64,000 bases of DNA from Candidatus Sulfomarinibacteraceae bacterium (GTDB lineage: Bacteria > Acidobacteriota > Thermoanaerobaculia > Thermoanaerobaculales > Sulfomarinibacteraceae): assembly GCA_963733915.1 (NCBI GenBank), contig CAVTEP010000003.1, positions 3,757 through 67,756 on the forward strand. The letters run 5' to 3'. The translations under genes were made by a program, and so were the position numbers. Positions 6,312 through 62,532 of this stretch are shown here, one piece after another. Below the pieces are notes generated by a model. It was not told the origin of the DNA and searched no databases. It saw only the letters and a list, made by a program, of their open reading frames with translations. How positions within the stretch are numbered: the first letter of the stretch is position 1; each line of letters starts with the position of its first letter.

Positions 6312-6476
6312 GAGTTCTTGAGTTTTGAGTTTTGAGCTTTGAGTTTTGAGTTCCCGACCATCCTCCCCTACCGAAATCAGAGGGAGGGCGGGGGAATTCC
6401 GAATTCCAAATTCCGAATTCCAAATTCCTAATTCCTAATTCCTACATTCCTAATTTCTCATTCCTAGTTCGAATTG
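6312..6476. repeat. tandem-unit element E1: (GAGTTTT)x5-6, C/G-box core, (AATTCCN)x9-10
   Basis: 6312-6352 gagttcttgagttttgagttttgagctttgagttttgagtt; core 6353-6394 cctcccct..agggagggcggggg; 6395-6476 aattccgaattccaaattccgaattccaaattcctaattcctaattcct...; the two arms are not complementary to each other. Confidence 0.85.
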
Positions 6477-6489
6477 CCTGCTATCCTGC

Positions 6490-8418
6490 GTGGCCATGAT
6501 CGCGATTACCGACCTCAGCAAGGCCTACGGCGCCCAGACCCTCTTTGACGAGGTCAACCTCCAGCTCAACCCAGGCTGTCGCTATGGGCTGGTCGGCGCC
6601 AACGGCTCCGGCAAGAGCACCATCTTGAGGATCATCGCCGGCACCGAGGAGCCGAGCGGCGGCGCCGTCTCACTCCCAAAGCGCCTCCGCGTCGGCGTCC
6701 TCGAGCAGGATCATTTCCGCCTCGAGGACACTCCGATCCTCGATGTGACGATGATGGGCCACCAAGAGTTGTGGCGAGCGCTGGCGGAAAAGGACCGCAT
6801 CCTCGAGGCCTCGGCGGAGCACTTTGACGGCGAGCGCTACGCCGAGGTCGAGGACCTCGTTGTCAGTCTCGACGGTTACAGCTTCGAGGCTCGCGCCGGT
6901 GAGATCCTCGAGGGACTCGGCATCCCGAGCGAACACCACCGACGGCCGCTGGCGACCCTCTCCGGCGGTTTCAAGCTGCGCGTTCTCCTCGCCCAGGTGC
7001 TGGCCGCGGACCCCGGCTGCCTGCTCCTCGACGAACCCACCAACCACCTCGACATTCTGTCCATCAGGTGGCTCGAGAAGTTTCTCGCAACCTATCGCGG
7101 TTGCGCTCTCGTCGTCTCCCACGACCACCGATTCCTCGACAACGTCTGCACCCACATCCTCGATATCGACTACGAGACGGTCACGCCCTACACCGGCAAC
7201 TACACGGACTTCACCGCCGCCAAGGTGGCGAATCGTGAACGCAAGGAGGGCGAGATCGCGCGCCAGGAAAAGAAAATCGCCGAACATCGGGCGTTTGCCG
7301 ACCGCTTTCGCGCCAAGGCGACCAAAGCGCGCCAGGCGCAGAGCAAGCTCAAGCAGATCGACCGCATCGTCATCGAGAACCTTCCCAGATCGTCACGCCG
7401 CTACCCGGTATTCCGATTCCGCCAGCGCCGCCCGAGCGGCAAGGAAGCGCTGCGCTTGAAGGGCATCAGCAAGTCATTCGGCGACAACAAGGTGCTCTCC
7501 GACGTCGGGCTTCGGGTCCGGCGCGGCGACCGTCTCGCCATCATCGGACCCAACGGGATCGGCAAGTCGACCCTGCTCAAAATCGCGGTCGGAGACCTGC
7601 CGCCCGACGCCGGCGAGGTTCGTTGGGGCCATGAGGTCCGCGCCGGTTACTTCGCCCAGGACCACCGGCAGGCGTTCAAGGGAAGCGACGCCACCGTCGA
7701 GAGCTGGCTCGGGGCGGCCTGCGGAGGCGAAAGCATTGGCGCGGTCCGCAATCGACTCGCTCAGGTGCTGTTTTCAGGCGACGAAGTCGAGAAGCGGCTC
7801 TCCAGCCTGTCCGGCGGCGAAGCGGCGCGGCTGATATTCGCAAAGCTCGCGGTCGACCAGCCAAACGTCCTGGTCCTTGACGAGCCGACCAACCATCTCG
7901 ATCTCGAGGCCATCGAGGCCCTGGTTGCCGCCATCGACGCGTTTGACGGAACGCTGATATTCGTCTCCCATGACCGGTGGTTCGTTTCCAAGCTCGCGAC
8001 TCGCGTGCTCGAAATCACCAAAGACGGGATCAACGACTACCCGGGAACATACGACGACTACCTGGCGAGCTGCGGCGACGACCACCTCGACGCCGACGCC
8101 GTGCTGCTGCGGGTCAAACGGGAGCGCAAGGCCAAGGCGTCCACCCGGCCAACCACTGAGAGTGCCCCCGACCGCGCCGAAATCAGGCGTCGCAAGGAGC
8201 TTTCGCTGCGGCGGGATGTGGTGACCGCCGCCGTCGAAAGCGCCGAGACGAGGATCGAGGAGATCGACCAGGCGTTCTGCGCGCCCGGTTTCTTCGACGA
8301 GACCGCGGAGTCAAAGATCCGCTCGATGCAGCAGGAGCGGGACAAGCTCGCCATCGACCTCGAAAAACTCATCGCCGAGTGGGAGCAGATCGAGGCAACC
8401 CTTGAATTCGAGTGTTGA
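6490..8418 (+). CDS. ABC-F family ATPase (two ABC domains plus C-terminal coiled coil; YheS/Uup-like)
   Basis: ORF 6490..8418; GANGSGKST, LSGGFKLR, LLLDEPTNHLD, GPNGIGKST, LSGGEAAR, LVLDEPTNHLD; start GTG 6490 or ATG 6496. Confidence 0.9.
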   Translation: MAMIAITDLSKAYGAQTLFDEVNLQLNPGCRYGLVGANGSGKSTILRIIAGTEEPSGGAVSLPKRLRVGVLEQDHFRLEDTPILDVTMMGHQELWRALAEKDRILEASAEHFDGERYAEVEDLVVSLDGYSFEARAGEILEGLGIPSEHHRRPLATLSGGFKLRVLLAQVLAADPGCLLLDEPTNHLDILSIRWLEKFLATYRGCALVVSHDHRFLDNVCTHILDIDYETVTPYTGNYTDFTAAKVANRERKEGEIARQEKKIAEHRAFADRFRAKATKARQAQSKLKQIDRIVIENLPRSSRRYPVFRFRQRRPSGKEALRLKGISKSFGDNKVLSDVGLRVRRGDRLAIIGPNGIGKSTLLKIAVGDLPPDAGEVRWGHEVRAGYFAQDHRQAFKGSDATVESWLGAACGGESIGAVRNRLAQVLFSGDEVEKRLSSLSGGEAARLIFAKLAVDQPNVLVLDEPTNHLDLEAIEALVAAIDAFDGTLIFVSHDRWFVSKLATRVLEITKDGINDYPGTYDDYLASCGDDHLDADAVLLRVKRERKAKASTRPTTESAPDRAEIRRRKELSLRRDVVTAAVESAETRIEEIDQAFCAPGFFDETAESKIRSMQQERDKLAIDLEKLIAEWEQIEATLEFEC

Positions 8419-8546
8419 GTTTTGAGTGTTGAGTTTTGAGTGTTGAGTTCTGAGTTGTCCCCACCCACCCTGATCGTCCCGAGAACGGCGGAAACCCCCG
8501 AAAAACCTCCGCAACTCAAAACTGAAAACTCAAAACTCAAAACTGA
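8410..8546. repeat. tandem-unit hairpin element E2: (GAGTKTT)x7, C-rich core, (AACTSAA)x5
   Basis: 8410-8458 gagtgttgagttttgagtgttgagttttgagtgttgagttctgagttgt overlaps the ABC-F stop codon (8416-8418); core starts ccccacccaccc; 8513-8546 aactcaaaactgaaaactcaaaactcaaaactga is the reverse complement family. Confidence 0.85.
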
Positions 8547-10763: not shown

Positions 10764-10804
10764 CTCATTCCGGCCCACCGGCTGCGCCGGTGGGCCGGAA
10801 TGAG
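10764..10804. repeat. perfect 18-bp-stem palindrome in the fmt / radical-SAM divergent region
   Basis: ctcattccggcccaccgg ctgcg ccggtgggccggaatgag; contains the same CCCACC/GGTGGG core as the tandem-unit elements. Confidence 0.7.
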
Positions 10805-10862: not shown

Positions 10863-13487
10863 GTGCTCATGAAACAACTTCCGCCGCACGAGATCCGCGC
10901 GGCGCTCGACGAGATCCTGCCGGGGGTCCAGAAACCGACCCGATACCTCGGCCTCGAACGGAATCTGGTGCGCAAGCCCTGGGAAACGGTGGGGGTGCGG
11001 GTAGCCCTCGCCTTTCCGGACGCTTACGAGATCGGAATGTCGCACCAGGGGACGCGGATCCTCTACCACCTCGTCAACCGGCGGGCCGACGCCCTCGCCG
11101 AGCGAGCCTTCGCGCCCATGCCGGACATGGCGGCCGCCTTGCGCGCCGCGCGCGTGCCTCTCTTCACCCTCGAGTCCTACCGCGCGGTGGCCGAGTTCGA
11201 GATCGTCGGCATCTCGCTGCAATCGGAGCTCAACTACATCAATATCCCCTACCTGCTCGACCTCGCCGGAATTACCCGCAGGGCTGAAGAGCGGCGTCAG
11301 GAGGAGCCCTTCGTCATCGGCGGAGGCCCATGTACCGCCAACCCCGAACCGGTCGCCGACTTCTTCGACGCCATCCTGATCGGTGACGGCGAGGCGGCGC
11401 TCGACCCGATCCTCGACGTCGTTCGCGACGGTCGCGCGGCCGGCAGGGACCGTACCGAGATTCTGCGCACCCTGGCCACCGTCCGTGGTGTCTACGTGCC
11501 TCGGTTTTATCACTGGCACGAGCCCAACGGCGAGCTTCAAGGTCGGTGGGAGACTGTCGCCGCCGACGCTCCGTTCCCCGTCGCCCGCGTGTGGGTTGAC
11601 CGCCTCGATCCCGCCGACCAACCCGAGTCGGTGATCGTCCCATACGCCGATGTCATCCAAGACCGTCTCGGCATGGAGATCATGAGGGGTTGCACGCAGG
11701 GATGCCGATTCTGTCAGGCGGGCTACTGGTACCGGCCGGTCCGCGAACACGACCCCGAGGTCGTGCTCGATCGCATGGAGCGCCAGGTTGCGGCTACCGG
11801 TTTCGAGGAAGTCGGCCTTCTCAGCCTGTCCACCGCAGACTATTCACAGGTCGAGCCGCTGGTCTACCACCTTGCCGAGCGCCTCCAGGACCGCAGGGTC
11901 TCCATCTCGCTGCCCTCTTTGCGCGCCGATGCGTTTTCGGTGGGTCTCGCGGAGGCCGTATCGCGGGTTCGCAAATCCGGATTCACCTTTGCCCCCGAGA
12001 CCGGGTCGGACCGTCTGCGCCGGGTCATCAACAAGACCTTTACTAACGCCGACATGGTGCGCGCCGCCGAGGCCGCATTTGCCAAGGGCTGGACCCTGAT
12101 CAAGGTCTACGCCATGATCGGGCTTCCGACCGAGACTGACGACGACCTCGAGGAGCTCGCACGGCTTGCCGAGGACATCCTCGCCGCCGGCCGCCGCGCC
12201 GGCGGCGGCCGCAAGGTCGAGGTCAAGGTGTCGGTGGGGTGCTTCATTCCCAAGGCCTGGACGCCCTTCCAATGGCAGCCCTTTGCCGGGGTCGCAGAGC
12301 TCCACTGCCGGATCGACCTTCTCAAGCGCCGCTTTCGCCGCATCCGCGGCGCCCGTCTCACCTGGTCTGACCCGGAGGAATCGGCTCTCGAGTCGTTGCT
12401 GTCTCGCGGCGGACGCGGTTTTTCGGCGGCGATCGAGCGCGCCCACGACCTCGGTGCGGTTTTCGACGGGTGGAGCGACCACATCAATCTCGACGCCTGG
12501 CATCGGGCGATCCACGAAGCGGGTATCGACGTCAAACGTGAGCTCGGCGAACGTCGACTCGGAGATTCGTTGCCGTGGGACCTCATCGACGCAGGGGTCC
12601 GCAAGGGCTACCTCAAGGCCGAGTGGCGGCGCGCCCTGCGCGAAACCGAGACCGAGGATTGCAAGTGGGGTCACTGTTACCGATGCGGCATCCCCGGTGA
12701 CGGCGATGACACTGACCTCGCGGCGACAACCCTGCCAGTGCTCGGTGAGCTCCTCCAGAAATCGGATCGGCCCAAGGCGGCCGCCTACCGGTTGCGCCCG
12801 GAGCCCCGTTTCCCGCCGGCGGCCGACGACCGCGAGCAATCGCCCGTGTACCGCCGCTATCGGTTCAGCTTTACCAAGACCGGCGACGCGCGTTGGTTGT
12901 CCCACCGTCAGTTGATGGACGCGCTGGAGAGAATGGTACGGGCGTCCGGCCTCCCGGTGCGGTATACAGAGGGTTTCAACCCCCACATCCGGCTGTCGAT
13001 GGGCCCCGCCCTTGCGACCGGTTTCGAGGGCATCTCCGAGATCTTCGATGTCGATTGCACGGCTCCGGTCAGGCCCCAGCAGCTGGCGTCCGCAAACGCC
13101 CTGCTGCCTGAGGGCGTCGAGATCCTCGATGCGCGGCCGCTGCTTCCGGGCGCGACCTCACTCGGCAAGACGGTCGCCGCCGCGCGCTACCGGATAGCTC
13201 GGTCGCGGTTTATCGAGCGATGGCCGGAGTCGGCGGACGGTCTCGCGGACGAGATTCTCGCCGGTATCCGGCGCTGGCAGCCGCTCGACGACGGCAGCCT
13301 CAGGGTCGAGCTCAACGCGCGTCAGGAGAACGGCCCCCTCGTGTCGATCAAGAAGCTCCTGGTGGCACTCGGGCTCGACGAGAACCAGATCGCCAGGATC
13401 CCGGTGACTCGGGAGATGCTGGTGCTCGAGGCCCGACAGAAGAATCGGGAGAACGCCGCCGAAACCACAAAGGCTGTGGCGCCGTGA
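10863..13487 (+). CDS. B12-binding-domain radical SAM protein (TIGR03960-like) fused to a DUF2344 (TIGR03936-like) C-terminal domain
   Basis: ORF 10863..13487; radical SAM cluster motif MRGCTQGCRFCQAGYWYRP; C-terminal RYRFSFTKTGDARWLSHRQLMDALERMVRASGLPVRYTEGFNPHIRLS. Confidence 0.85.
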   Translation: MLMKQLPPHEIRAALDEILPGVQKPTRYLGLERNLVRKPWETVGVRVALAFPDAYEIGMSHQGTRILYHLVNRRADALAERAFAPMPDMAAALRAARVPLFTLESYRAVAEFEIVGISLQSELNYINIPYLLDLAGITRRAEERRQEEPFVIGGGPCTANPEPVADFFDAILIGDGEAALDPILDVVRDGRAAGRDRTEILRTLATVRGVYVPRFYHWHEPNGELQGRWETVAADAPFPVARVWVDRLDPADQPESVIVPYADVIQDRLGMEIMRGCTQGCRFCQAGYWYRPVREHDPEVVLDRMERQVAATGFEEVGLLSLSTADYSQVEPLVYHLAERLQDRRVSISLPSLRADAFSVGLAEAVSRVRKSGFTFAPETGSDRLRRVINKTFTNADMVRAAEAAFAKGWTLIKVYAMIGLPTETDDDLEELARLAEDILAAGRRAGGGRKVEVKVSVGCFIPKAWTPFQWQPFAGVAELHCRIDLLKRRFRRIRGARLTWSDPEESALESLLSRGGRGFSAAIERAHDLGAVFDGWSDHINLDAWHRAIHEAGIDVKRELGERRLGDSLPWDLIDAGVRKGYLKAEWRRALRETETEDCKWGHCYRCGIPGDGDDTDLAATTLPVLGELLQKSDRPKAAAYRLRPEPRFPPAADDREQSPVYRRYRFSFTKTGDARWLSHRQLMDALERMVRASGLPVRYTEGFNPHIRLSMGPALATGFEGISEIFDVDCTAPVRPQQLASANALLPEGVEILDARPLLPGATSLGKTVAAARYRIARSRFIERWPESADGLADEILAGIRRWQPLDDGSLRVELNARQENGPLVSIKKLLVALGLDENQIARIPVTREMLVLEARQKNRENAAETTKAVAP

Positions 13488-13864
13488 GCCGATGGATCGT
13501 CCATTCGCACGCAGGCTTCAACGCGCGCCACGCCCTGGCCCGCTACCGCGGCCAGCCCGAGACCGCTCACGACCACCGGTGGCGGGTGGCCGTGCGGGTC
13601 GGCGCCGACGCCCTGACCGACGAAGGCTACGCCCTCGACTTCCACCAGGTCCACGAGATTCTGACCGGCGCGGTGGCCGTCCTCGACGGCGGCGACCTCA
13701 GCCACCATCCCGAGATCGGCCGGCCCTCGCCGACCGCCGAACGCGTGGCCGAGGTCCTCGCTGAACAGCTCGCGCCGCGTTTCGCAGATCTTGGCGGTCG
13801 GCTGCTGTCGGTCAGTGTGTGGGAGGGCGAGGACAATCGGGTCGATTTGATTCTCGATCGATGA
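13484..13864 (+). CDS. 6-pyruvoyl-tetrahydropterin synthase / QueD-like protein without any cysteine
   Basis: in frame of ORF 13220..13864; GTG at 13484 overlaps the upstream TGA (GTGA); FNARHAL, AHDHRWRV (HxH zinc motif), DFHQV, PTAERVA; no Cys in 126 aa. Confidence 0.65.
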   Translation: MSRWIVHSHAGFNARHALARYRGQPETAHDHRWRVAVRVGADALTDEGYALDFHQVHEILTGAVAVLDGGDLSHHPEIGRPSPTAERVAEVLAEQLAPRFADLGGRLLSVSVWEGEDNRVDLILDR

Positions 13865-13865
13865 A

Positions 13866-14370
13866 GGCTATGGGGCTATGTGGCTGTGGGGCTATGGGGC
13901 TATGGAATTGACAAGCGGCTTGGCGCCTAGGGTGAGAACGAATCGCGTTTCTGTATGAACGCGGCAAGGGCGGCGGCAGTGCGCCCGTGCAATTCACCGA
14001 GAACCGAAGAAGTCTCGTCGCTCAGGTATCCCAATCTGGACGAAAGCGCAATCAAATACCCCTACTCTCGGAGAGAGCCAAATGCGATATCCAAAAACCG
14101 ATTGAATTCAGTTTCCGTGCGGCGGCCGCATCCCTCCACGAAATTGGGCGCCACAGAAACGGCACTTCGTCGTGCCTGGCTCACCAAGCCGTAAAGTCCC
14201 TCTTTCGGGAAATTGTTCGTCGATTGATAGACCTCAATCACAAGATCATCCGCCAACTGGAAGATCTCGAGTTTCCGGTGGTCCCTCACGATTCTCCCGC
14301 TTTACCTGTTGCGCACACGGATCGGGTCCTTCATAGCCCCATAGCCCCATAGCCTCATAGCCACTTGGCC
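13866..14370. repeat. tandem-unit element E3: (GGCTATGG)x5 and (CCATAGCC)x5 inverted arms enclosing a four-helix-bundle gene
   Basis: 13866-13905 ggctatggggctatgtggctgtggggctatggggctatgg; 14331-14370 tcatagccccatagccccatagcctcatagccacttggcc; fills the gap between the stop codons of two convergent genes (13864 and 14372). Confidence 0.9.
13927..14289 (-). pseudogene. four-helix-bundle protein (23S rRNA intervening-sequence protein family, PF05635/TIGR02436-like) interrupted by one in-frame TAG
   Basis: ORF 14062..14289 MRDHRKLEIFQLADDLVIEVY...SAVSVAPNFVEGCGRRTETEFNRFLDIAFGSLRE ends at TAG 14064-14062; same frame continues GYLIALSSRLGYLSDETSSVLGELHGRTAAALAAFIQKRDSFSP to TAG 13929-13927, total about 120 codons as normal for the family. 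Confidence 0.8.
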
Positions 14371-14371
14371 G

Positions 14372-16387
14372 TCAACCCTCGAGCGACTTGGCGACCAACT
14401 CGATGACGTCATAGGTCGCGACGCCCTCGCGGCCGAGCTCGTTCTGGGCGTCCGACAGCATGGAAAAACAGTAGGGGCAGGCCACCGCCACATTCGAAGT
14501 GCCGCTGTCTTCGAGCTGCGCAAATCGGGTCTGGTTGATGCGTTCGCCGATCTTCTCTTCGAGCCACATCCTGCCGCCCCCCGCGCCGCAGCACATCGAG
14601 GTCTCGCGGTGGAGCTCCGCCTCGCGGACCTTGATCCCGGGAATTGCCTTGAGCAGGAACCGCGGGGCGTCGTACTCGCCGTTGGTGCGGCCGAGATAGC
14701 ACGGGTCGTGATAGGCGAGGTCGACGTTGACGCTGCCCATGAGCTTGACCCTGCCCTTGCGTACCAGCTGGGCCACCAGTTGGGTCCCGTGCACCACCTC
14801 GTAGTCACCGCCGAAATCAGGGTACTCGTGGGCGAGGGTGTTGAAGGCGTGCGGACAGTTGGTGACGATCTTCTTGACGCCGTACCGGTTCATGGTTTCG
14901 ACGTTTTGTTGCGCCAGCATCTGGAAGAGATACTCGTTGCCGAGCCGGCGCGCCGCATCGCCGGTCGAGACTTCCTCCGACCCGAGGATGGCGATCTTGA
15001 TGCCGGCCTCCGTGAGGATCTTGACCAACGCCCGTGAAACTTTCTTGCCGTGGTCGTCATAGCTGCCGGGCGAGCCGACAAAGAACAGGTACTCGAAGTC
15101 GCCGCCGGCCTCGGCGGCCAGCGGCACCCCGAGATCGGACGCCCAGTTGCCGCGCTCCTCGGCCGGCATCTGCCAGGGGTTGCCGTTGACCTCGTAACCG
15201 CGGAAGGCGCTCTGCGCCTCCTCGGGAAACTCGGCCTTTTCGAGCACCAGGTTGCGCCGCATCTCGACCAATTTGTCGACGTAGGAGATGTCGAGGGGAC
15301 AGGCGCGCTCACACCAACGACAGGTCGTGCAGGCCCAGATCACATCGGGATCGACGACCAGCGGTACCAATTGGTGCTGCGACGCACGTCCGCCGTCACC
15401 CGGCGAACCGAGGATCTCGGACTGCTCTCGGTAGAGCTGGTCGCGGACGGTTTTCAAATAGAGCACCGGCTGCAGCGGTTTGTGAGTGATGGTGGTCGGG
15501 CAAAACTCGCGGCAGCGACCGCACTCGGTGCAGGTGTACATGTCGAGCATCTGTTTCCACGTGAAGTCGGTGATGGTAGCGATGCCGAAGGTGCTGTCCT
15601 CGTCGATGTTCTCGAGGTCCATGCCCGGCAGCTTGCCGGGGGCGTCGAGCTTGGCGAAGAAGACGTTGAAGATCGAGGTGTAGACGTGGAAGTGCTTGGA
15701 GTACGGCAGCTCGTTGGCGAAGGCGAAGAGGGTGATCAGGTGGATCCACCAGCTGGCGCTGTAGACGATCTGCAGGGTCGCCGTACCAAAGCCGGCGAAT
15801 GCGCGCGCCGCCAGGCTCGAAATCGGCAGGTAGGCGCCGTTGATATCACCGGCGGCGATCCGGGCGCCCTCGGCGGCGAGGTCGGTCACCATCAGGATCG
15901 CGATCAACCCGATCACCAGCCAGGCGCCCCAGCTTTGGATCACGCGCTCCTTTTTCTGGATGCCGCGTCGCCAGACGGCGAAACAAAGACCCACCAGCAC
16001 CAGCAACTCGAAAATGTCCTTGGAGAACAGATAGGCGTGACCCAAGGGCGAGTCGAGGAGCGGCAGCTCCCAACCCGCCAAGAGGCCCTCGAGGACCATC
16101 GTCACCGTGCGGACGCTGACCACCAGGAAGCCGTAGAAGATCAACAGGTGATACAACCCGGCAACCGGGTCATCAAACATCTTCTTCTGCCCGAAGGCGT
16201 AGATCATCATGTGCTTGAAACGCTCGCCGAGACGGTCGAGTCGGTTGTCGGGGCGGCCCGCCCTGAGGACCTGGAAACGCCGGCTCAGCGACAGAACGAC
16301 CGCGCCGACACCGATTATCGTGAGAACCCAGAACCAAACGACCCCGGAGATCCCCAGAAACGTCCCAGCCGTGGCGTGATGCAGCAT
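14372..16387 (-). CDS. membrane-anchored iron-sulfur oxidoreductase (DsrM/NarI-like TM domain fused to DsrK/HdrD-like 4Fe-4S and CCG domains)
   Basis: ORF 14372..16432 trimmed to ATG 16387 behind GGAGGAG; CTECGRCREFCP, CTTCRWCERACP, HDPCYLGR, MCCGAGGG. Confidence 0.8.
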   Translation of the reverse strand: MLHHATAGTFLGISGVVWFWVLTIIGVGAVVLSLSRRFQVLRAGRPDNRLDRLGERFKHMMIYAFGQKKMFDDPVAGLYHLLIFYGFLVVSVRTVTMVLEGLLAGWELPLLDSPLGHAYLFSKDIFELLVLVGLCFAVWRRGIQKKERVIQSWGAWLVIGLIAILMVTDLAAEGARIAAGDINGAYLPISSLAARAFAGFGTATLQIVYSASWWIHLITLFAFANELPYSKHFHVYTSIFNVFFAKLDAPGKLPGMDLENIDEDSTFGIATITDFTWKQMLDMYTCTECGRCREFCPTTITHKPLQPVLYLKTVRDQLYREQSEILGSPGDGGRASQHQLVPLVVDPDVIWACTTCRWCERACPLDISYVDKLVEMRRNLVLEKAEFPEEAQSAFRGYEVNGNPWQMPAEERGNWASDLGVPLAAEAGGDFEYLFFVGSPGSYDDHGKKVSRALVKILTEAGIKIAILGSEEVSTGDAARRLGNEYLFQMLAQQNVETMNRYGVKKIVTNCPHAFNTLAHEYPDFGGDYEVVHGTQLVAQLVRKGRVKLMGSVNVDLAYHDPCYLGRTNGEYDAPRFLLKAIPGIKVREAELHRETSMCCGAGGGRMWLEEKIGERINQTRFAQLEDSGTSNVAVACPYCFSMLSDAQNELGREGVATYDVIELVAKSLEG

Positions 16388-16501
16388 GGCTCCTCCTTCG
16401 AGCTGGGATTGCCAAGCGACGCAGTGCGGCAATCCATCCCGGGGAGTATAGCCAGGAAATTCTGATATTCGGACGACGGCGGAACAGAGTATTTCGGCGG
16501 A

Positions 16502-18892: not shown

Positions 18893-19023
18893 GAAACGTT
18901 AGAACGTTAAAACGTTCAACGTTCCCGCCCACCCCCGAGAGTTGGGTTGCTCATTCTTGTCTCGATATCACGGAACCTTCAAGAGTGGAACGTTCTGACC
19001 TTCAACGTTCTAAGGTTCTAACG
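18893..19023. repeat. tandem-unit element E4: (NAACGTTN) arms with CCCGCCCACCCCC core
   Basis: 18893-18923 gaaacgttagaacgttaaaacgttcaacgtt; C-box 18924-18936; right arm 18972-19023 ggaaccttcaagagtggaacgttctgaccttcaacgttctaaggttctaacg. Confidence 0.8.
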
Positions 19024-19091
19024 ACGTCCTCGATATCGATCGGGGCGAGTACAATGGAGCGGCTCGGGCACGACAGCCCTCAGGAGGAACC

Positions 19092-19613: not shown

Positions 19614-19620
19614 AAAAGCA

Positions 19621-19694
19621 GAGGGGAAAAGGGGAAGAGGGGAAAAGGGGACCCACCAACCCCTCTTCTCCTTTTCTCCTTTTCTCCTTTTCCC
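19621..19694. repeat. tandem-unit hairpin element E5: (GGGGAARA)x3-4, CCCACCAA, (CTCCTTTT)x4
   Basis: gaggggaaaaggggaagaggggaaaagggga cccaccaa cccctcttctccttttctccttttctccttttccc; begins 7 nt after the stop codon. Confidence 0.85.
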
Positions 19695-20763: not shown

Positions 20764-20808
20764 GAGGCTATGAGCTATGGGCCATGAGCTATGGGTGATG
20801 AAGCTACG
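20764..20808. repeat. single tandem-unit arm E6 (CTATGRG heptamers), no partner arm seen
   Basis: gaggctatgagctatgggccatgagctatgggtgatgaagctacg, 15 nt after hemH stop; same unit family as E3 and E11. Confidence 0.7.
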
Positions 20809-22740: not shown

Positions 22741-23885
22741 AGATCGCCACCTCCTGCGTTCATGCCGGCCATGGCGCCGACGAACTCACTGGAGCCGTCA
22801 ACGTTCCGATCTATGCCTCCTCTACGTATGCGTATCGCCGTTTCGGAGAGCATCGCGGCTGGGAGTATTCGCGTACCGGGAACCCGACGCGATCCGCCCT
22901 CGAGCGCGCGATGGCTGAGATCGAGGGCGGAGCCGACGGGATCGCCTTTGCCTCCGGTCTGGCCGCGATAGATGCCCTCACCGATCTTTTCGAGGCCGGG
23001 GACAATGTAGTCGCCGCCGACACTCTCTATGGCGGCACCTGGCGCCTGTTTTCGACCATCACCAAACGCCACGGACTCGAGCTGCGCTTTGCCGCCGCCA
23101 CCGATCCGGAGTCCTTTGCCGCAGCAGCCGACGAACGCACGCGGATGATCTTTGTCGAGTCCCCGACCAATCCGCTCATGCAGCTGGTCGACCTGTCCGC
23201 GGTCACTTCCGTCGCCGGAGCGCACGGTGCCCTGCTGGTGGTCGACAACACTTTTCTGACGCCGGTCCTGCAGCGCCCCCTCGAGCTCGGCGCTGACGTC
23301 GTCGTGCACTCCACGACCAAGTACCTCAACGGCCACTCGGACGGCGTCGGCGGCGTGATCGTCACCCGCGACGCCGCGCTCGGCCAACAACTGCACACCA
23401 TTCAGAACAACGTCGGCGCCATTCTCGGGCCCTTCGACGCCTACCTGGTCATCAGGGGCTTGAAAACCCTGGCCGTCCGCATGGCGGTGCACGAAGCCAA
23501 CGGCCGGAGTCTCGCCGGCTTTCTGGCGGCCCACAAGGATGTTGCCGCCGTGTATTACCCCGGGCTTGCCAGCCACCCGCAACACCGGCTGGCGCGGAGC
23601 CAACAATCCGGTTTCGGGGGCATGATCTCGTTTGATCTCGGATCGGTTGAGAAGGCGCGTGCCTTCTGCGACGGAGTCGAGATCTTCACCCTCGCCGAGT
23701 CGCTCGGCGGAGTTGAATCGCTGGTCTGCCACCCGGCCACCATGACCCACGCAGCGATACCCGCCGATGTGCGGGAGCGCCTCGGCATCGGCCAGGGATT
23801 GATCCGGCTCTCGGTCGGCATCGAGGACGCGTCCGACCTCGAGGCCGACATCACCAAGGGCCTCGACGCCGCATCAGACGTTTGA
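22737..23885 (+). CDS. cystathionine gamma-lyase/gamma-synthase family PLP enzyme
   Basis: frame of ORF 22578..23885 trimmed to MKIATSCVHAG (ATGA overlap with upstream stop); HSTTKYLNGHSD PLP-lysine motif. Confidence 0.85.
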   Translation: MKIATSCVHAGHGADELTGAVNVPIYASSTYAYRRFGEHRGWEYSRTGNPTRSALERAMAEIEGGADGIAFASGLAAIDALTDLFEAGDNVVAADTLYGGTWRLFSTITKRHGLELRFAAATDPESFAAAADERTRMIFVESPTNPLMQLVDLSAVTSVAGAHGALLVVDNTFLTPVLQRPLELGADVVVHSTTKYLNGHSDGVGGVIVTRDAALGQQLHTIQNNVGAILGPFDAYLVIRGLKTLAVRMAVHEANGRSLAGFLAAHKDVAAVYYPGLASHPQHRLARSQQSGFGGMISFDLGSVEKARAFCDGVEIFTLAESLGGVESLVCHPATMTHAAIPADVRERLGIGQGLIRLSVGIEDASDLEADITKGLDAASDV

Positions 23886-24008
23886 ACGATTCAACGTTAA
23901 TACGTTAAAACGTTCCCACCCCTCCTCCCCCGAGATCCTCGGCCATCGACAGGGTTGGGCGGGCGAAACGTTCTAACGTTAAACGTTCCAACATTCTAAC
24001 GATTCAAA
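23884..24008. repeat. tandem-unit hairpin element E7: AACGTT-type arms, C-box, G-box; bounded by 10-nt direct repeat
   Basis: 23884-23914 gaacgattcaacgttaatacgttaaaacgtt; C-box 23915-23931 cccacccctcctccccc; G-box 23952-23965 gggttgggcgggcg; right arm 23966-24008; aacgattcaa at 23885-23894 and 23998-24007; left end overlaps TGA 23883-23885. Confidence 0.85.
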
Positions 24009-26533: not shown

Positions 26534-26669
26534 CAACCGTTTGAACGTTGCAACATTAGAACGTTAGAACGTTAGAACGTTCCTAATCTCCCCCAGGGTG
26601 TACATCGAGAATTGACTGGGGTGGATGGACGAAACGTTTTAACGTTGAACGTTCCAACGTGTAACGTCG
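26534..26669. repeat. tandem-unit hairpin element E8: AACGTT-type arms around ctcccccag...ctggggtgg core
   Basis: 26534-26583 caaccgtttgaacgttgcaacattagaacgttagaacgttagaacgttcc; right arm 26631-26669 gaaacgttttaacgttgaacgttccaacgtgtaacgtcg; ends 5 nt before the stop of the convergent gene. Confidence 0.85.
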
Positions 26670-31067: not shown

Positions 31068-31143
31068 GGACCCTCCCCTCGAAACTTCAACGACTCGTCT
31101 CGCTCTGGATTACGCATTTGCGGCGAAAAATGTTCGCTCTGGT

Positions 31144-31189
31144 CAAATTTCGGCCGGGCTGAGGCGGCCGACAGCCCGGCCGAAATTTG
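31144..31189. repeat. perfect 18-nt inverted repeat with 10-nt spacer in divergent promoter region
   Basis: caaatttcggccgggctg aggcggccga cagcccggccgaaatttg between the exporter operon and the acyl-CoA dehydrogenase gene. Confidence 0.7.
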
Positions 31190-31236
31190 AAGCGGGGGGA
31201 ATGTAGAATACGGTCCGGAGAAACCGAGGAGGTGTC

Positions 31237-32463: not shown

Positions 32464-32646
32464 AATAGGAATTAGGAATGCCCCACCCGTTAGAAGGCGT
32501 GAGGGGAGCGTAATTCTCAATCCCGATTCACCGCCCTTCCTCCGTTGGGAGGGCGGGTGGAAAAATCCAAAATTGAAATTGAGAACTGAGAATTCGATGC
32601 AATGGGTGGGCGGGATTCCTAATTCCTAATTCCTAATGCGAATTCG
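32463..32646. repeat. nested tandem-unit element E9 (outer GGAATTAGG/CCTAATTCC arms, inner AATTCTCA-type arms, two C-box/G-box pairs)
   Basis: outer arm 32463-32480, C-box ccccaccc 32481-32488, inner C-box 32530-32543, loop gtt, inner G-box gggagggcgggtgg 32547-32560, outer G-box gggtgggcggg 32604-32614, outer arm attcctaattcctaattcctaatgc 32615-32639; starts in the TAG stop 32461-32463. Confidence 0.85.
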
Positions 32647-36648: not shown

Positions 36649-36653
36649 TCCTT

Positions 36654-36690
36654 GTTTCCCGCGGTCGCCCGCCGGGCGACCGCGGGAAAC
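36654..36690 (+). promoter_or_regulatory. 37-nt perfect palindrome between nifU and nifS (attenuator or processing hairpin candidate)
   Basis: gtttcccgcggtcgcccg c cgggcgaccgcgggaaac; no U-run after it; AGGAGG and GTG start of nifS follow. Confidence 0.6.
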
Positions 36691-36718
36691 TAGGTGATGA
36701 GGATCAGCAGGAGGCTTC

Positions 36719-40133: not shown

Positions 40134-40337
40134 TTACGGCGGCTACGATCGCAGTCGCTCGCTGCACCACCGACTCCGGAATCGACATCGCCTTCGAGGT
40201 CTTTTCTGTAATCGGTGAGACCTCGGAGGCCGTCACCCTTCTCGAATGCCGCCATCACCGCCCTCTACCCCGAGGTCCTCGATCAGACGGCAACGCCGCA
40301 AGCGCGCGCCGGGCGCGCGCTTACGGGATTCATTGAA

Positions 40338-44675: not shown

Positions 44676-44854
44676 GCCCACCCTACCACCCAGGCTATGA
44701 GGCTATGAGGCTATGAGGGGCCAGCCACCTATCCATTGGCTGCAAGCGAGAGGTGTGCCCGATAGTCCCATAGCCAGGCCGCGACTCGTCACGTCGAACC
44801 CCCGGGGCGAAAACGGAAGCGGCCGATCATAGCCCTATAGCCCCAAAGCCCCTG
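44676..44854. repeat. tandem-unit element E11 (C-box, (GGCTATGA)x3 ... (YCATAGCC)x3)
   Basis: gcccaccctaccaccc 44676-44691; ggctatgaggctatgaggctatgagggg 44693-44720; about 105-nt centre; tcatagccctatagccccaaagcccctg 44827-44854 abutting the stop of the next ORF. Confidence 0.8.
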
Positions 44855-57970: not shown

Positions 57971-58264
57971 AGTCTATCGCGGAAAACGCCTTCCCGTCAT
58001 GATCGTAAGAAACGTTTTGTCTGCCTGAATATTGTGGCGAAGTTTCATCGCGACGCTGGAATTCACGTTTGTTCATCGCAGCACTGCAGCCATGGTTCAC
58101 ACGCTCGCCTCTTATGGTTGCGCATTGCATCATGAATATTGTGGTCAGATTTCGCGCTATTTGCTGACTGTAAATGTTCTTTCCAGTCGCGGCGGCGGAC
58201 CAGACTGCTGCACTTTTTGATAAAATGACATTTGATTTATTTCGAGATTTTGCAGAAATTTCCC

Positions 58265-58293
58265 TTGACTCTCGATATTCTAAATCGTATTCT
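58265..58293 (+). promoter_or_regulatory. sigma70-like promoter candidate TTGACT - 17 nt - TATTCT
   Basis: 58265-58270 ttgact, 58288-58293 tattct, followed by GGAGGTG (58309-58315) and ATG 58320. Confidence 0.45.
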
Positions 58294-58319
58294 GACCTTA
58301 GACTCTTTGGAGGTGACCT

Positions 58320-58706
58320 ATGGCGTTCGAGAAGTTCATTCCGCCGCAAACCTCCGGTGTGCGGCCACGGGCCACCATCCGGCCGAGCGGTTTGATCTCA
58401 TTCGATTCGGCTACGGTAGAGGCGTTTGGTCTGAAATCTGCGTCGTACGCGGTGTTGTATTTCGACAAAACGCGAAAAATCGTTGGCGTGCAGATTTCGA
58501 AGAATGCCAACGAAGATGGTTCGTTGAAGCTGTCGCGTAGACGGCGGTCCGTGAGTCTTAAAGCGCCGCAGTTTTTCGACCTCTACGGGCTCTCATTTGA
58601 TGAAGCACAGCGATTCGACGTCGGGCTGGATCCCGATTCCAAAATGCTGACAATCAGCCTGAAATCGGTCCAGCGCCGCCGCGGGCGGCGTCCCAAGACG
58701 ACCTGA
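58320..58706 (+). CDS. orphan hypothetical protein with basic C-terminal tail (QRRRGRRPKTT)
   Basis: ORF 58320..58706; own promoter and strong RBS; sits in an AT-richer islet; no family recognised. Confidence 0.55.
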   Translation: MAFEKFIPPQTSGVRPRATIRPSGLISFDSATVEAFGLKSASYAVLYFDKTRKIVGVQISKNANEDGSLKLSRRRRSVSLKAPQFFDLYGLSFDEAQRFDVGLDPDSKMLTISLKSVQRRRGRRPKTT

Positions 58707-59695: not shown

Positions 59696-60037
59696 CCGCT
59701 GCCGCTGTCCCTGCCCGGTCCCTACCCGCCGTTGCAACGGATCGGACCACCGGTATCGGAGACGGGTGGTCCCCTTTTCCCCTTTTCTCCTTTTCTCCTT
59801 TCCCCCCCTTCCTCATCAGGGAGGGCGGGTGAAACGTTCGGTTCATCCGGAATTTGATGGGATCGAGTTTTGGAAGTTCCGATCAGCTAACCCAGCGACA
59901 GGAACAGCGACACACCGCAGGGGCAGTGAACAGCGGCCGAGGCAGCGACCGCGGCAGCGACCGGGGCAGTGAGCAGGGGTCGTGACGACGGCATGTTCAA
60001 GCCGGGTCGTTCAGTGCGAGAGGTAGCCGGTGGGCAC

Positions 60038-60493: not shown

Positions 60494-60716
60494 TCGGCGT
60501 TCTCCGCGCCGGTCCGGCCGGGAGTTGTCGCGGTCAACTGTCCCTGACGCGGTCCACGGCCGCTGCCGCCGTCCCTGACCGCCGCCCCTGACCGCCCGTC
60601 CAACGGATGCGACCAACTCCGTCGGGGACGGGTGGGTGGAAAATCCGAATTCCGAAATTGAAGAGTTGACACCCCACGCAATTCCGGAAGACCCAAACGT
60701 TCCAACGTACAAACGT

Positions 60717-62370: not shown

Positions 62371-62460
62371 GTTAAGAGTCAAGAGTTAAGGGTCAAGACG
62401 TGCTGCTATTCAAGAAGAGGACATGGGATGGCTTCACTCTTGACTCTTGACTCTTCACAG
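62371..62460. repeat. tandem-unit hairpin element E16: (YAAGAGT)x4 / (GACTCTT)x3-4
   Basis: gttaagagtcaagagttaagggtcaagacg 62371-62400; 31-nt centre without C/G box; cttcactcttgactcttgactcttcacag 62432-62460. Confidence 0.85.
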
Positions 62461-62532
62461 TTGGGCTGACCGGATGCGGATACGGAGGTGGGAGCAAGCG
62501 AAATCCGAACCCGGCCACTCGCACGGCTCGGT

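Follow-up and report, generated by a model that had tools for sequence, protein, structure and literature searches.

The PF05635 'IVS proteins', stand-alone relatives of the diversity-generating retroelement (DGR) cofactor Avd, are among the commonest unexplained small genes of bacteria. Intervening sequences (IVSs) of 23S rRNA lie inside helix 9, 25 or 45 of that molecule, and why PF05635 genes sit in them has been a question since the early 1990s. Between the genes of cyanobacteria, another lineage, are tandem heptamer arrays with a 7-nt period and other units (short tandemly repeated repetitive sequences, STRR). Here we analyse a 64,000-nt stretch of DNA from a Candidatus Sulfomarinibacteraceae bacterium (contig CAVTEP010000003.1; 'the window', in whose coordinates positions are given) and, within it, a locus that bears on this question: an element of ~505 bp (13866–14370) in which a PF05635 gene is enclosed by two inverted tandem arrays of the unit GGCTATG(G).

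The closest described systems are of two kinds. In the S23p-bearing IVS of Coxiella, the 28-bp terminal stem is cleaved by RNase III, tandem GACAGAT heptamers (two or three, the copy number varying between strains) occupy the 5′ arm at the cleavage site, and the S23p open reading frame (ORF) is degenerating (PMC4990558). In Geobacter metallireducens, pairs of 3–5 tandem units of 7–9 nt lie between genes on opposite strands at variable distance, with many copies per genome; their interpretation as sites for IHF/HU was made without a test (PMC2700814).

The reading that we favour, with a probability of roughly 60%, is that the element is a promoterless IVS-type hairpin cassette, with its gene in the loop between inverted arrays and the whole placed between two convergent housekeeping genes. 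We found no description of array-flanked PF05635 genes outside rRNA in the searchable literature. What seems to be new is this architecture, an IVS-type hairpin cassette outside rRNA with array arms, general to the family, and not the pseudogene: taken alone, the TAG-broken copy in the window is an ordinary one.

Layout of the cassette and state of its gene

Forming the focal locus are the following features:

13487–13864, plus strand: PTPS gene (6-pyruvoyl-tetrahydropterin synthase family, PF01242), convergent with the oxidoreductase gene
13866–13905, no strand (plus-strand reading; 3′ arm in the sense of the gene): left arm, five GGCTATGG units, two of them with one substitution each
13906–13926, minus strand: trailer from the natural stop codon to the left arm, 21 nt
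13927–14289, minus strand: PF05635/TIGR02436 gene, 120 codons plus a TAG stop, GTG start, broken at codon 76
14062–14064, minus strand: premature TAG (codon 76) midway along predicted helix 3, where homologues have Leu, Val or Met
14290–14330, minus strand: leader from the right arm to the GTG, 41 nt, with the Shine-Dalgarno sequence GGGAG at 14298–14294
14331–14370, no strand (plus-strand reading; 5′ arm in the sense of the gene): right arm, four good CCATAGCC-type units and one degenerate unit
14372–16432, minus strand: CCG-domain/4Fe-4S oxidoreductase gene, co-directional with the PF05635 gene and directly upstream of it

The left arm begins 2 nt past the TGA of the PTPS gene and the right arm stops 1 nt short of the oxidoreductase stop codon, so that the element exactly fills the gap between the two convergent genes. 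An initial annotation of the window, made from the letters and their reading frames, had placed the element between two protein-coding genes, here identified as those for PTPS and an Fe-S oxidoreductase, and had described its arms as two five-unit octamer arrays forming a 40-nt inverted repeat. The array coordinates are correct, although neither array is perfect: the left one reads GGCTATGG GGCTATGT GGCTGTGG GGCTATGG GGCTATGG (38/40 matches to a perfect array) and the right one TCATAGCC CCATAGCC CCATAGCC TCATAGCC ACTTGGCC (35/40), with its outermost unit degenerate. The inverted repeat is likewise real but is not perfect over 40 nt, extending over 31 nt at 90% complementarity, or over 52 nt at 83% when stretched into the flanks (13853–13904 / 14332–14383). 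The window contains 12 copies of the two-unit 16-mer GGCTATGGGGCTATGG when up to three mismatches are allowed; the expectation from shuffled sequences is 0.26, and none of these reached 12.

Folding of 13850–14390 as RNA closes the element with a long arm stem on both strands (minimum free energies of −228.8 and −216.4 kcal/mol; z-scores of −5.6 and −5.5). Paired terminal inverted repeats thus give a long stem with the ORF in its loop, which is the IVS-like layout that had been proposed. A search of 13600–14600 for sigma-70-like promoters found none. Neither rRNA nor any other Rfam family was detected in the whole window at gathering thresholds, nor anything meaningful for 13700–14500 at E ≤ 1.

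Membership of the gene in PF05635/TIGR02436, another claim of the initial annotation, is confirmed by hidden Markov model (HMM) scores for the joined read-through product of 96 bits with PF05635 (cut-off 33.8) and 91.1 bits with TIGR02436 (cut-off 24). The first 75 residues alone reach 79 bits with PF05635, so the C-terminal part still adds family signal, and the 44 codons past the TAG do stay in frame as reported; the 44-residue C-terminal fragment alone is too short and has no match in Pfam. The best homologue in the databases, P0001, is an intact protein of 118 residues with 82% amino-acid identity, and the closest genomic relatives of the protein, at 72% identity, are in metagenome-assembled genomes (MAGs) of Candidatus Sulfomarinibacteraceae (Acidobacteriota, Thermoanaerobaculia). 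An AlphaFold2 model of P0001 (predicted local distance difference test score, pLDDT, of 95) contains four helices (residues 3–24, 29–54, 59–85 and 91–117). Foldseek aligned it with template-modelling (TM) scores of 0.91 to 2GSC, which phmmer also matches (E = 4e-18), and 0.84 to 2RLD. The predicted fold is thus a four-helix bundle like that of solved family members, and the protein probably forms a pentameric ring, as 2GSC has five chains.

The same model resembles Avd (4DWL, TM score of 0.78) and structures of DGR ribonucleoproteins (RNPs), and the protein has a weak match to the PHROG 'Avd protein of DGR', as would be expected if the gene were the avd of a DGR remnant. That origin is very improbable, as the NCBIfam model DivGenRetAVD gives 13.9 bits against a cut-off of 80, the neighbouring ~3 kb hold neither a reverse transcriptase nor a template/variable repeat pair, and the gene is present in a single copy, with no second PF05635 gene in the window. 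The focal element is not a DGR, and it does not lie inside rRNA. All neighbours within ~3 kb were identified, namely PTPS, a radical-SAM protein, the Fe-S oxidoreductase and a MutY-like protein, and a comparison with PADLOC defence models gave no family at E ≤ 0.01.

The TAG at codon 76 (14064–14062) is the only in-frame interruption before the natural stop, also TAG (13929–13927), and leaves the window copy without an intact translatable ORF. Aligned with it is GTG (Val) in the orthologue on contig L001 and Leu or Met in other homologues. As TTG to TAG is the sole single-step route from any residue found in homologues, this change would most simply account for the inactivation. The truncation is predicted to remove helix 4 entirely and helix 3 in part. 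Two further substitutions, E31G and I50F, fall at near-invariant columns, and with them the window copy ranks among the top three of 91 sequences, suggesting relaxed constraint. Recent inactivation, as the initial annotation had it, agrees with the orthologues at the same site, which are intact and have been kept by strong purifying selection, and with the Leu, Val or Met aligned to the TAG, and we regard the stop as a probable recent, lineage-specific lesion. In a Sulfomarinibacteraceae MAG (L017, protein P0060), another PF05635 copy looks degraded, with its start codon lost and its C-terminal region scrambled, so decay of these genes recurs.

Two alternatives would keep the protein in use. 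One is that the gene is actually intact, the TAG stemming from faulty sequencing or assembly or from a minority allele, and the element simply another functional cassette; a single-base lesion in an otherwise perfect frame, a good Shine-Dalgarno sequence and start codon, and the 17 bits that the C-terminal part still adds to the HMM score would all fit. We consider this unlikely in view of E31G and I50F, of the decay of such genes elsewhere (P0060, and S23p in Coxiella; PMC4990558) and of the finding that a database of 5.8 billion clusters contains no intact protein above 82% identity. The other supposes read-through or recoding of the TAG (suppressor tRNA or pyrrolysine) and hence a full-length protein, for which the undamaged frame past the TAG could be cited. 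This is scarcely credible, because this genome uses TAG as an ordinary stop: 9 of the 38 called genes in the window end with it, and the natural stop of the focal gene is included; a tRNA scan of the window found no tRNA genes, and homologues have plain Leu, Val or Met at codon 76.

Inversion and exchange at a fixed site

The best homologue, P0001, is encoded on contigs L001 and L102 at the orthologous PTPS/oxidoreductase site. The order there is the oxidoreductase C-terminus, an GGCTATGA/GCTATGG array, the gene, (CATAGCCT)x6 and the convergent PTPS gene. Between the window and L001 the proportion of synonymous differences (pS) is 0.75, which is saturated, and that of nonsynonymous differences (pN) is 0.11, so the gene has long been kept by purifying selection. 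The element is no new arrival: its site is occupied across lineages with saturated synonymous sites, and the window copy appears instead to be a recently broken copy of an old resident.

On related metagenome contigs, the cassette is found in both orientations at the PTPS/oxidoreductase site. The identical protein P0007 is encoded in the direction oxidoreductase to gene on L125, like the window copy, and in the direction PTPS to gene on L126. The cassette interiors of these two contigs are identical at 422 of 433 positions, compared with 598 of 658 in the flanks (Fisher p = 8e-6). The opposite discordance separates L001 from L101, whose flanks are 94.2% (668/709) and 91.2% identical while the cassette gene is 69.6% identical (p = 3e-26); these two cassettes have opposite orientations and units of 8 nt (L001) and 7 nt (L101). 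The window, L001 and L124 share one orientation and L101, an 80% relative of L124, has the other. Inverted repeats around a segment that occurs in both orientations relative to fixed flanks, the mark of an inverton, are thus present here. Because cassette and flank similarities are discordant (70% versus 94% and 97.5% versus 91%), the cassette is invertible and exchangeable at a fixed site. These comparisons show cassettes flipped and replaced at one site, with the history of the cassette uncoupled from that of its flanks.

The arms bear private unit variants common to both arms of each element: GCGCTATG in L125 and L126, AAGCTATA in L101, GGCTATGR in the window and L001, and GGCTATAC in L003. 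Among ten population contigs with no differences in the 363-nt gene, two have a 16-nt (two-unit) indel in one arm, and single-nucleotide polymorphisms also occur in the arms. The arms therefore evolve fast and in concert beside an unchanged gene.

The terminal inverted repeats, the homologues at many different loci, the discordant phylogenies of cassette and flank, and the shortness of many carrying contigs, as repeats would give, could also be read as signs of a classical autonomous mobile element (similar to a transposon or a miniature inverted-repeat transposable element) that inserted recently and then died; the initial annotation had seen in it a recently inactivated autonomous copy of its element family. 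Nothing in the sequence points to autonomy: the element codes for neither a transposase nor a recombinase nor a reverse transcriptase, and the search for promoter-like sites was negative. No dedicated invertase is encoded in or next to the cassette. At the arm borders of the window copy no target-site duplication or other direct repeat outside the arms is evident, the other loci not having been surveyed systematically for one. With the site occupied across lineages at saturated synonymous divergence, and exchange at one fixed site in either orientation suiting homologous replacement better, a dead transposon is a quite improbable explanation. Inversion and fixed-site replacement would fit recombination through symmetric arms better than self-driven transposition.

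Two side observations concern this site. The Fe-S oxidoreductase gene is co-directional with the PTPS gene in L095 and L097–L100 and convergent with it in the window, L001, L101, L125 and L126, so a larger inversion has occurred, with breakpoints in the array-rich intergenic DNA. Three features recur in the leaders of the window copy (14290–14330), L001, L101, L124, L125 and L126: a GGGAG-like Shine-Dalgarno sequence, a stop codon (TAA or TAG) in frame six codons ahead of the start, and a small hairpin. In the focal leader, which is partly kept in orthologous cassettes, the stop is TAA; an in-frame stop 5′ of the start codon is not conserved across the family and is specific to this lineage.

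Array arms across phyla and in the window

A survey of 80 loci, with one genome per species, covered Planctomycetota, Verrucomicrobiota, Nitrospirota, Desulfobacterota, Bacteroidota, Acidobacteriota and others. In this subfamily, most PF05635 genes lie between inverted tandem arrays of 7–8-nt units, and the bracketing inverted repeat exceeds the 95th percentile of displaced controls at 54 of 71 loci. The top enriched 5-mer upstream is AGGCT (10.5-fold, 41/71 loci), and downstream it is the reverse complement, AGCCT (10.1-fold). Wherever the arms are clear (26/26 loci), the G-rich arm is the 5′ arm. Comparison of these sequences shows inverted 7–8-nt arrays with an AGGCT/AGNCT core to be a hallmark of the subfamily in many phyla. 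The initial annotation had supposed that further copies would have flanking arrays, and they do, in L001, L003, L013, L101 and L124–L126 as well as across the survey.

The design is shared by 21 loci on viral contigs, where the arm often ends ~8 nt before the start codon. In these contigs (L103–L123) and at many genome loci, the 5′ arm often ends 2–15 nt before the start codon, its last AGG or GGAGG could double as a Shine-Dalgarno sequence, and the 3′ arm begins 0–9 nt past the stop. At such distances the ORF almost exactly fills the loop.

Upstream neighbours are co-directional at 39 of 51 loci and downstream neighbours convergent at 26 of 59; PF05635 genes tend to lie toward the ends of transcription units. 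Several genes of Planctomycetota are inside tRNA gene clusters (L037, L050, L051, L068, L084 and L090), with a tRNA ending ~50 nt upstream on the opposite strand and, in L068, eight tRNAs in 3.3 kb. Among the 11 loci without protein-coding neighbours, tRNA clusters were the only such context and rRNA was found at none. Clusters of tRNA genes are thus a second stable-RNA habitat besides rRNA.

Arrays also occur without a gene. More than ten other intergenic 7–8-nt arrays in the window are gene-less, mostly inverted pairs abutting stop codons. Pairs of this kind, the arrays with the GGCTATG unit and the blocks at inner borders are located as follows:

8408–8458 / 8510–8546: gene-less inverted array pair
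18894–18923 / ~18995–19025: gene-less inverted array pair
19618–19651 / 19662–19692: gene-less inverted array pair
23885–23914 / 23966–24008: gene-less inverted array pair
26538–26581 / 26633–26667: gene-less inverted array pair
62371–62397 / 62432–62462: gene-less inverted array pair
44692–44852, no strand: gene-less GGCTATG pair, (AGGCTATG)x3.4 at 44692–44718 and CATAGCCC-type units at 44828–44852, ~109 nt apart
20766–20795, plus strand: solo GGCTATGA/GCTATGG array with no inverted partner
6353–6393, 8459–8470, 18924–18936, 23915–23965, 32481–32614, 59760–59830 and 60625–60640: C- or G-rich inner-border blocks

In the first six pairs the units are GAGTKTT/AAAACTC (GAGTTTT), GGGGAAAA/TTTTCTCC, AAGAGTC/GACTCTT and AACGTTNN. 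Their 5′ arm is the G-rich one, save for the AACGTTNN pairs, which have a palindromic core. The 44692–44852 pair sits between a SurA-like gene and a short unannotated minus-strand ORF that was spotted by eye. Its interior, compared with the cassette as for a deletion derivative, shows no similarity above shuffles, and orthologous sites have either ten GCTCGAT units (L128) or no array (L127), neither with a PF05635 gene. The same families of array units recur in relatives, with different unit types at orthologous sites.

These arrays bear on whether gene and arms belong together. The arrays could be generic hairpins of the lineage, serving as terminators, insulators or nucleoid-protein sites, with a PF05635 gene that landed in one loop; arms and gene would then not be one element. 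The gene-less inverted pairs with other units, mostly at stop codons, the GGCTATG unit in the gene-less pair at 44692–44852, the same unit families in the intergenic DNA of relatives and the paired hepta- and octanucleotide sites of G. metallireducens, guessed to be IHF/HU sites (PMC2700814), are all compatible with this. It is nevertheless an improbable account, because the AGGCT-type core follows PF05635 genes across many phyla and viral contigs, close homologues at other loci retain the unit type (L013), and cassettes exchanged at the PTPS/Fe-S site bring their own unit variant and period. The gene-less pairs weaken the exclusivity of array arms to PF05635; the cross-phylum link between AGGCT-type arrays and the gene remains.

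Other observations on the arrays can be added. A G-quadruplex reading of the (GGCTATGG)n arm was dropped because most units of the family (AGGCTGA, GAGTCTT and others) cannot form one. At the inner borders of many array pairs, CCCACCC ... GGGTGGG/GGGCGGG blocks give a GC-rich apical stem with a polarity opposite to that of the arrays. AATTCCN arrays (6394–6470 and 32615–32644, and upstream of the Fe-S oxidoreductase gene in L095 and L097–L100) lie before gene starts and not past stops, and in relatives are followed by TCTATACT, which resembles a −10 box, suggesting a promoter-proximal array type. Beside array hairpins are terminator-like, GC-rich, perfect palindromic hairpins (10765–10803, 31143–31190, 36650–36694 and 40296–40326). 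The local GC content dips to 48% at 58000–58499, against a genome average of 64%.

Possible mechanism and comparison with known systems

In the scheme that we propose, the cassette would be transcribed by read-through from whichever flanking gene is co-directional. In the window the likely source is the oxidoreductase gene, owing to its co-directional position immediately upstream of the PF05635 gene. In the read-through RNA, the arms would pair into a stem of ~40 bp around the ORF; this stem could be a substrate of RNase III, as in 23S rRNA IVSs, and its cleavage would release the cassette from the host transcript. In DNA, the same arms would act as symmetric homology arms, allowing inversion or replacement by an incoming cassette in either orientation. 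As the arms are one array inverted, an incoming cassette would be equally homologous either way, which would explain the joint occurrence of flipping and replacement. Inactivation of the gene in this genome is recent, and the arms are still there. Roles in both RNA and DNA are likely: inversion and exchange at the DNA level are shown by the contig comparisons, and processing of the stem in RNA is suggested by analogy with IVSs.

Several points weigh against the hairpin-cassette reading. The evidence for orientation and exchange comes from short metagenome contigs, and the 76% co-directional upstream bias is not clearly above the general bacterial background. Many gene-less pairs have other units, so array hairpins exist here independently of the gene. 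Across the 26 loci with clear arms, stem stability has no strand asymmetry (hairpin energies, Wilcoxon p = 0.43), and G-U-compatible mismatches are not in excess over A-C mismatches on the sense strand (23 versus 34), which gives no particular support to selection acting on RNA of the sense strand; the arms could be kept complementary by frequent recombination in DNA alone. RNase III processing and read-through transcription are inferences.

A wider reading, which we offer tentatively and hold to be doubtful, is that PF05635 genes with AGNCT-type inverted-array arms form a previously unrecognised, phylum-spanning class of promoterless, invertible and exchangeable cassettes, of which 23S IVSs would be the rRNA-resident subset, and that the Avd-like protein recognises the units and promotes processing or exchange. 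If so, the habitats of the class would be places where a long hairpin leaves the RNA harmlessly, such as rRNA helices, clusters of tRNA genes, and the 3′ ends of mRNAs where two genes converge. The pentameric Avd-like protein would bind the 7–8-nt units in RNA or DNA, exchange might proceed via an RNA/cDNA intermediate, and the strict polarity of the arms, of which the 5′ one is G-rich whichever strand is read, would be the footprint of that mechanism.

Whatever the breadth of the class, the locus and its relatives present a hairpin-plus-ORF design outside rRNA, with arms of tandem 7–8-nt units, that is flipped and swapped at a conserved site. Three testable ideas follow: that IVSs are one habitat of a general cassette, that the arms have two roles, as a stem for RNase III and as symmetric arms for recombination, and that the protein may bind the repeat units. 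In practice, such arrays fragment metagenome assemblies and may pass for terminators or regulator sites.

Among known systems, the 23S rRNA IVSs of Coxiella burnetii and Leptospira share the PF05635/S23p family with the focal element and likewise place the ORF in the loop of a long inverted-repeat stem. Also in common are tandem heptamers in the stem with variable copy number, decay of the ORF while the RNA structure persists, a sporadic distribution and apparent horizontal exchange. Unlike them, the focal element lies outside rRNA, between two convergent protein-coding genes, both of its arms are full tandem 8-mer arrays, and the cassette, known in either orientation, is exchanged among strains at one fixed site; excision by RNase III, shown for the IVSs, is only inferred for it.

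Avd (4DWL, 8UB7), a distant homologue, has the same four-helix-bundle fold and probably the same pentameric ring. The focal gene differs from it in sequence (~7% identity), scores far below the cut-off of the Avd equivalog model (13.9 versus 80 bits) and has no reverse transcriptase, template repeat or variable repeat nearby. The paired sites of G. metallireducens (Aklujkar et al. 2009, PMC2700814) match the gene-less array pairs of the window, but have the units GTTGCTYN, TCTCCGTS and MTYCTGA, contain no cargo genes and were not reported to have a link to PF05635.

In its way of working, the cassette is comparable with integron cassettes and invertons, with a promoterless ORF closely hemmed by structured repeat sites that would be expressed from outside, exchange at a fixed site and both orientations in populations. 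It differs from these in being a single cassette without an associated integrase or invertase, and in having two symmetric array arms instead of one attC or short invertase sites.

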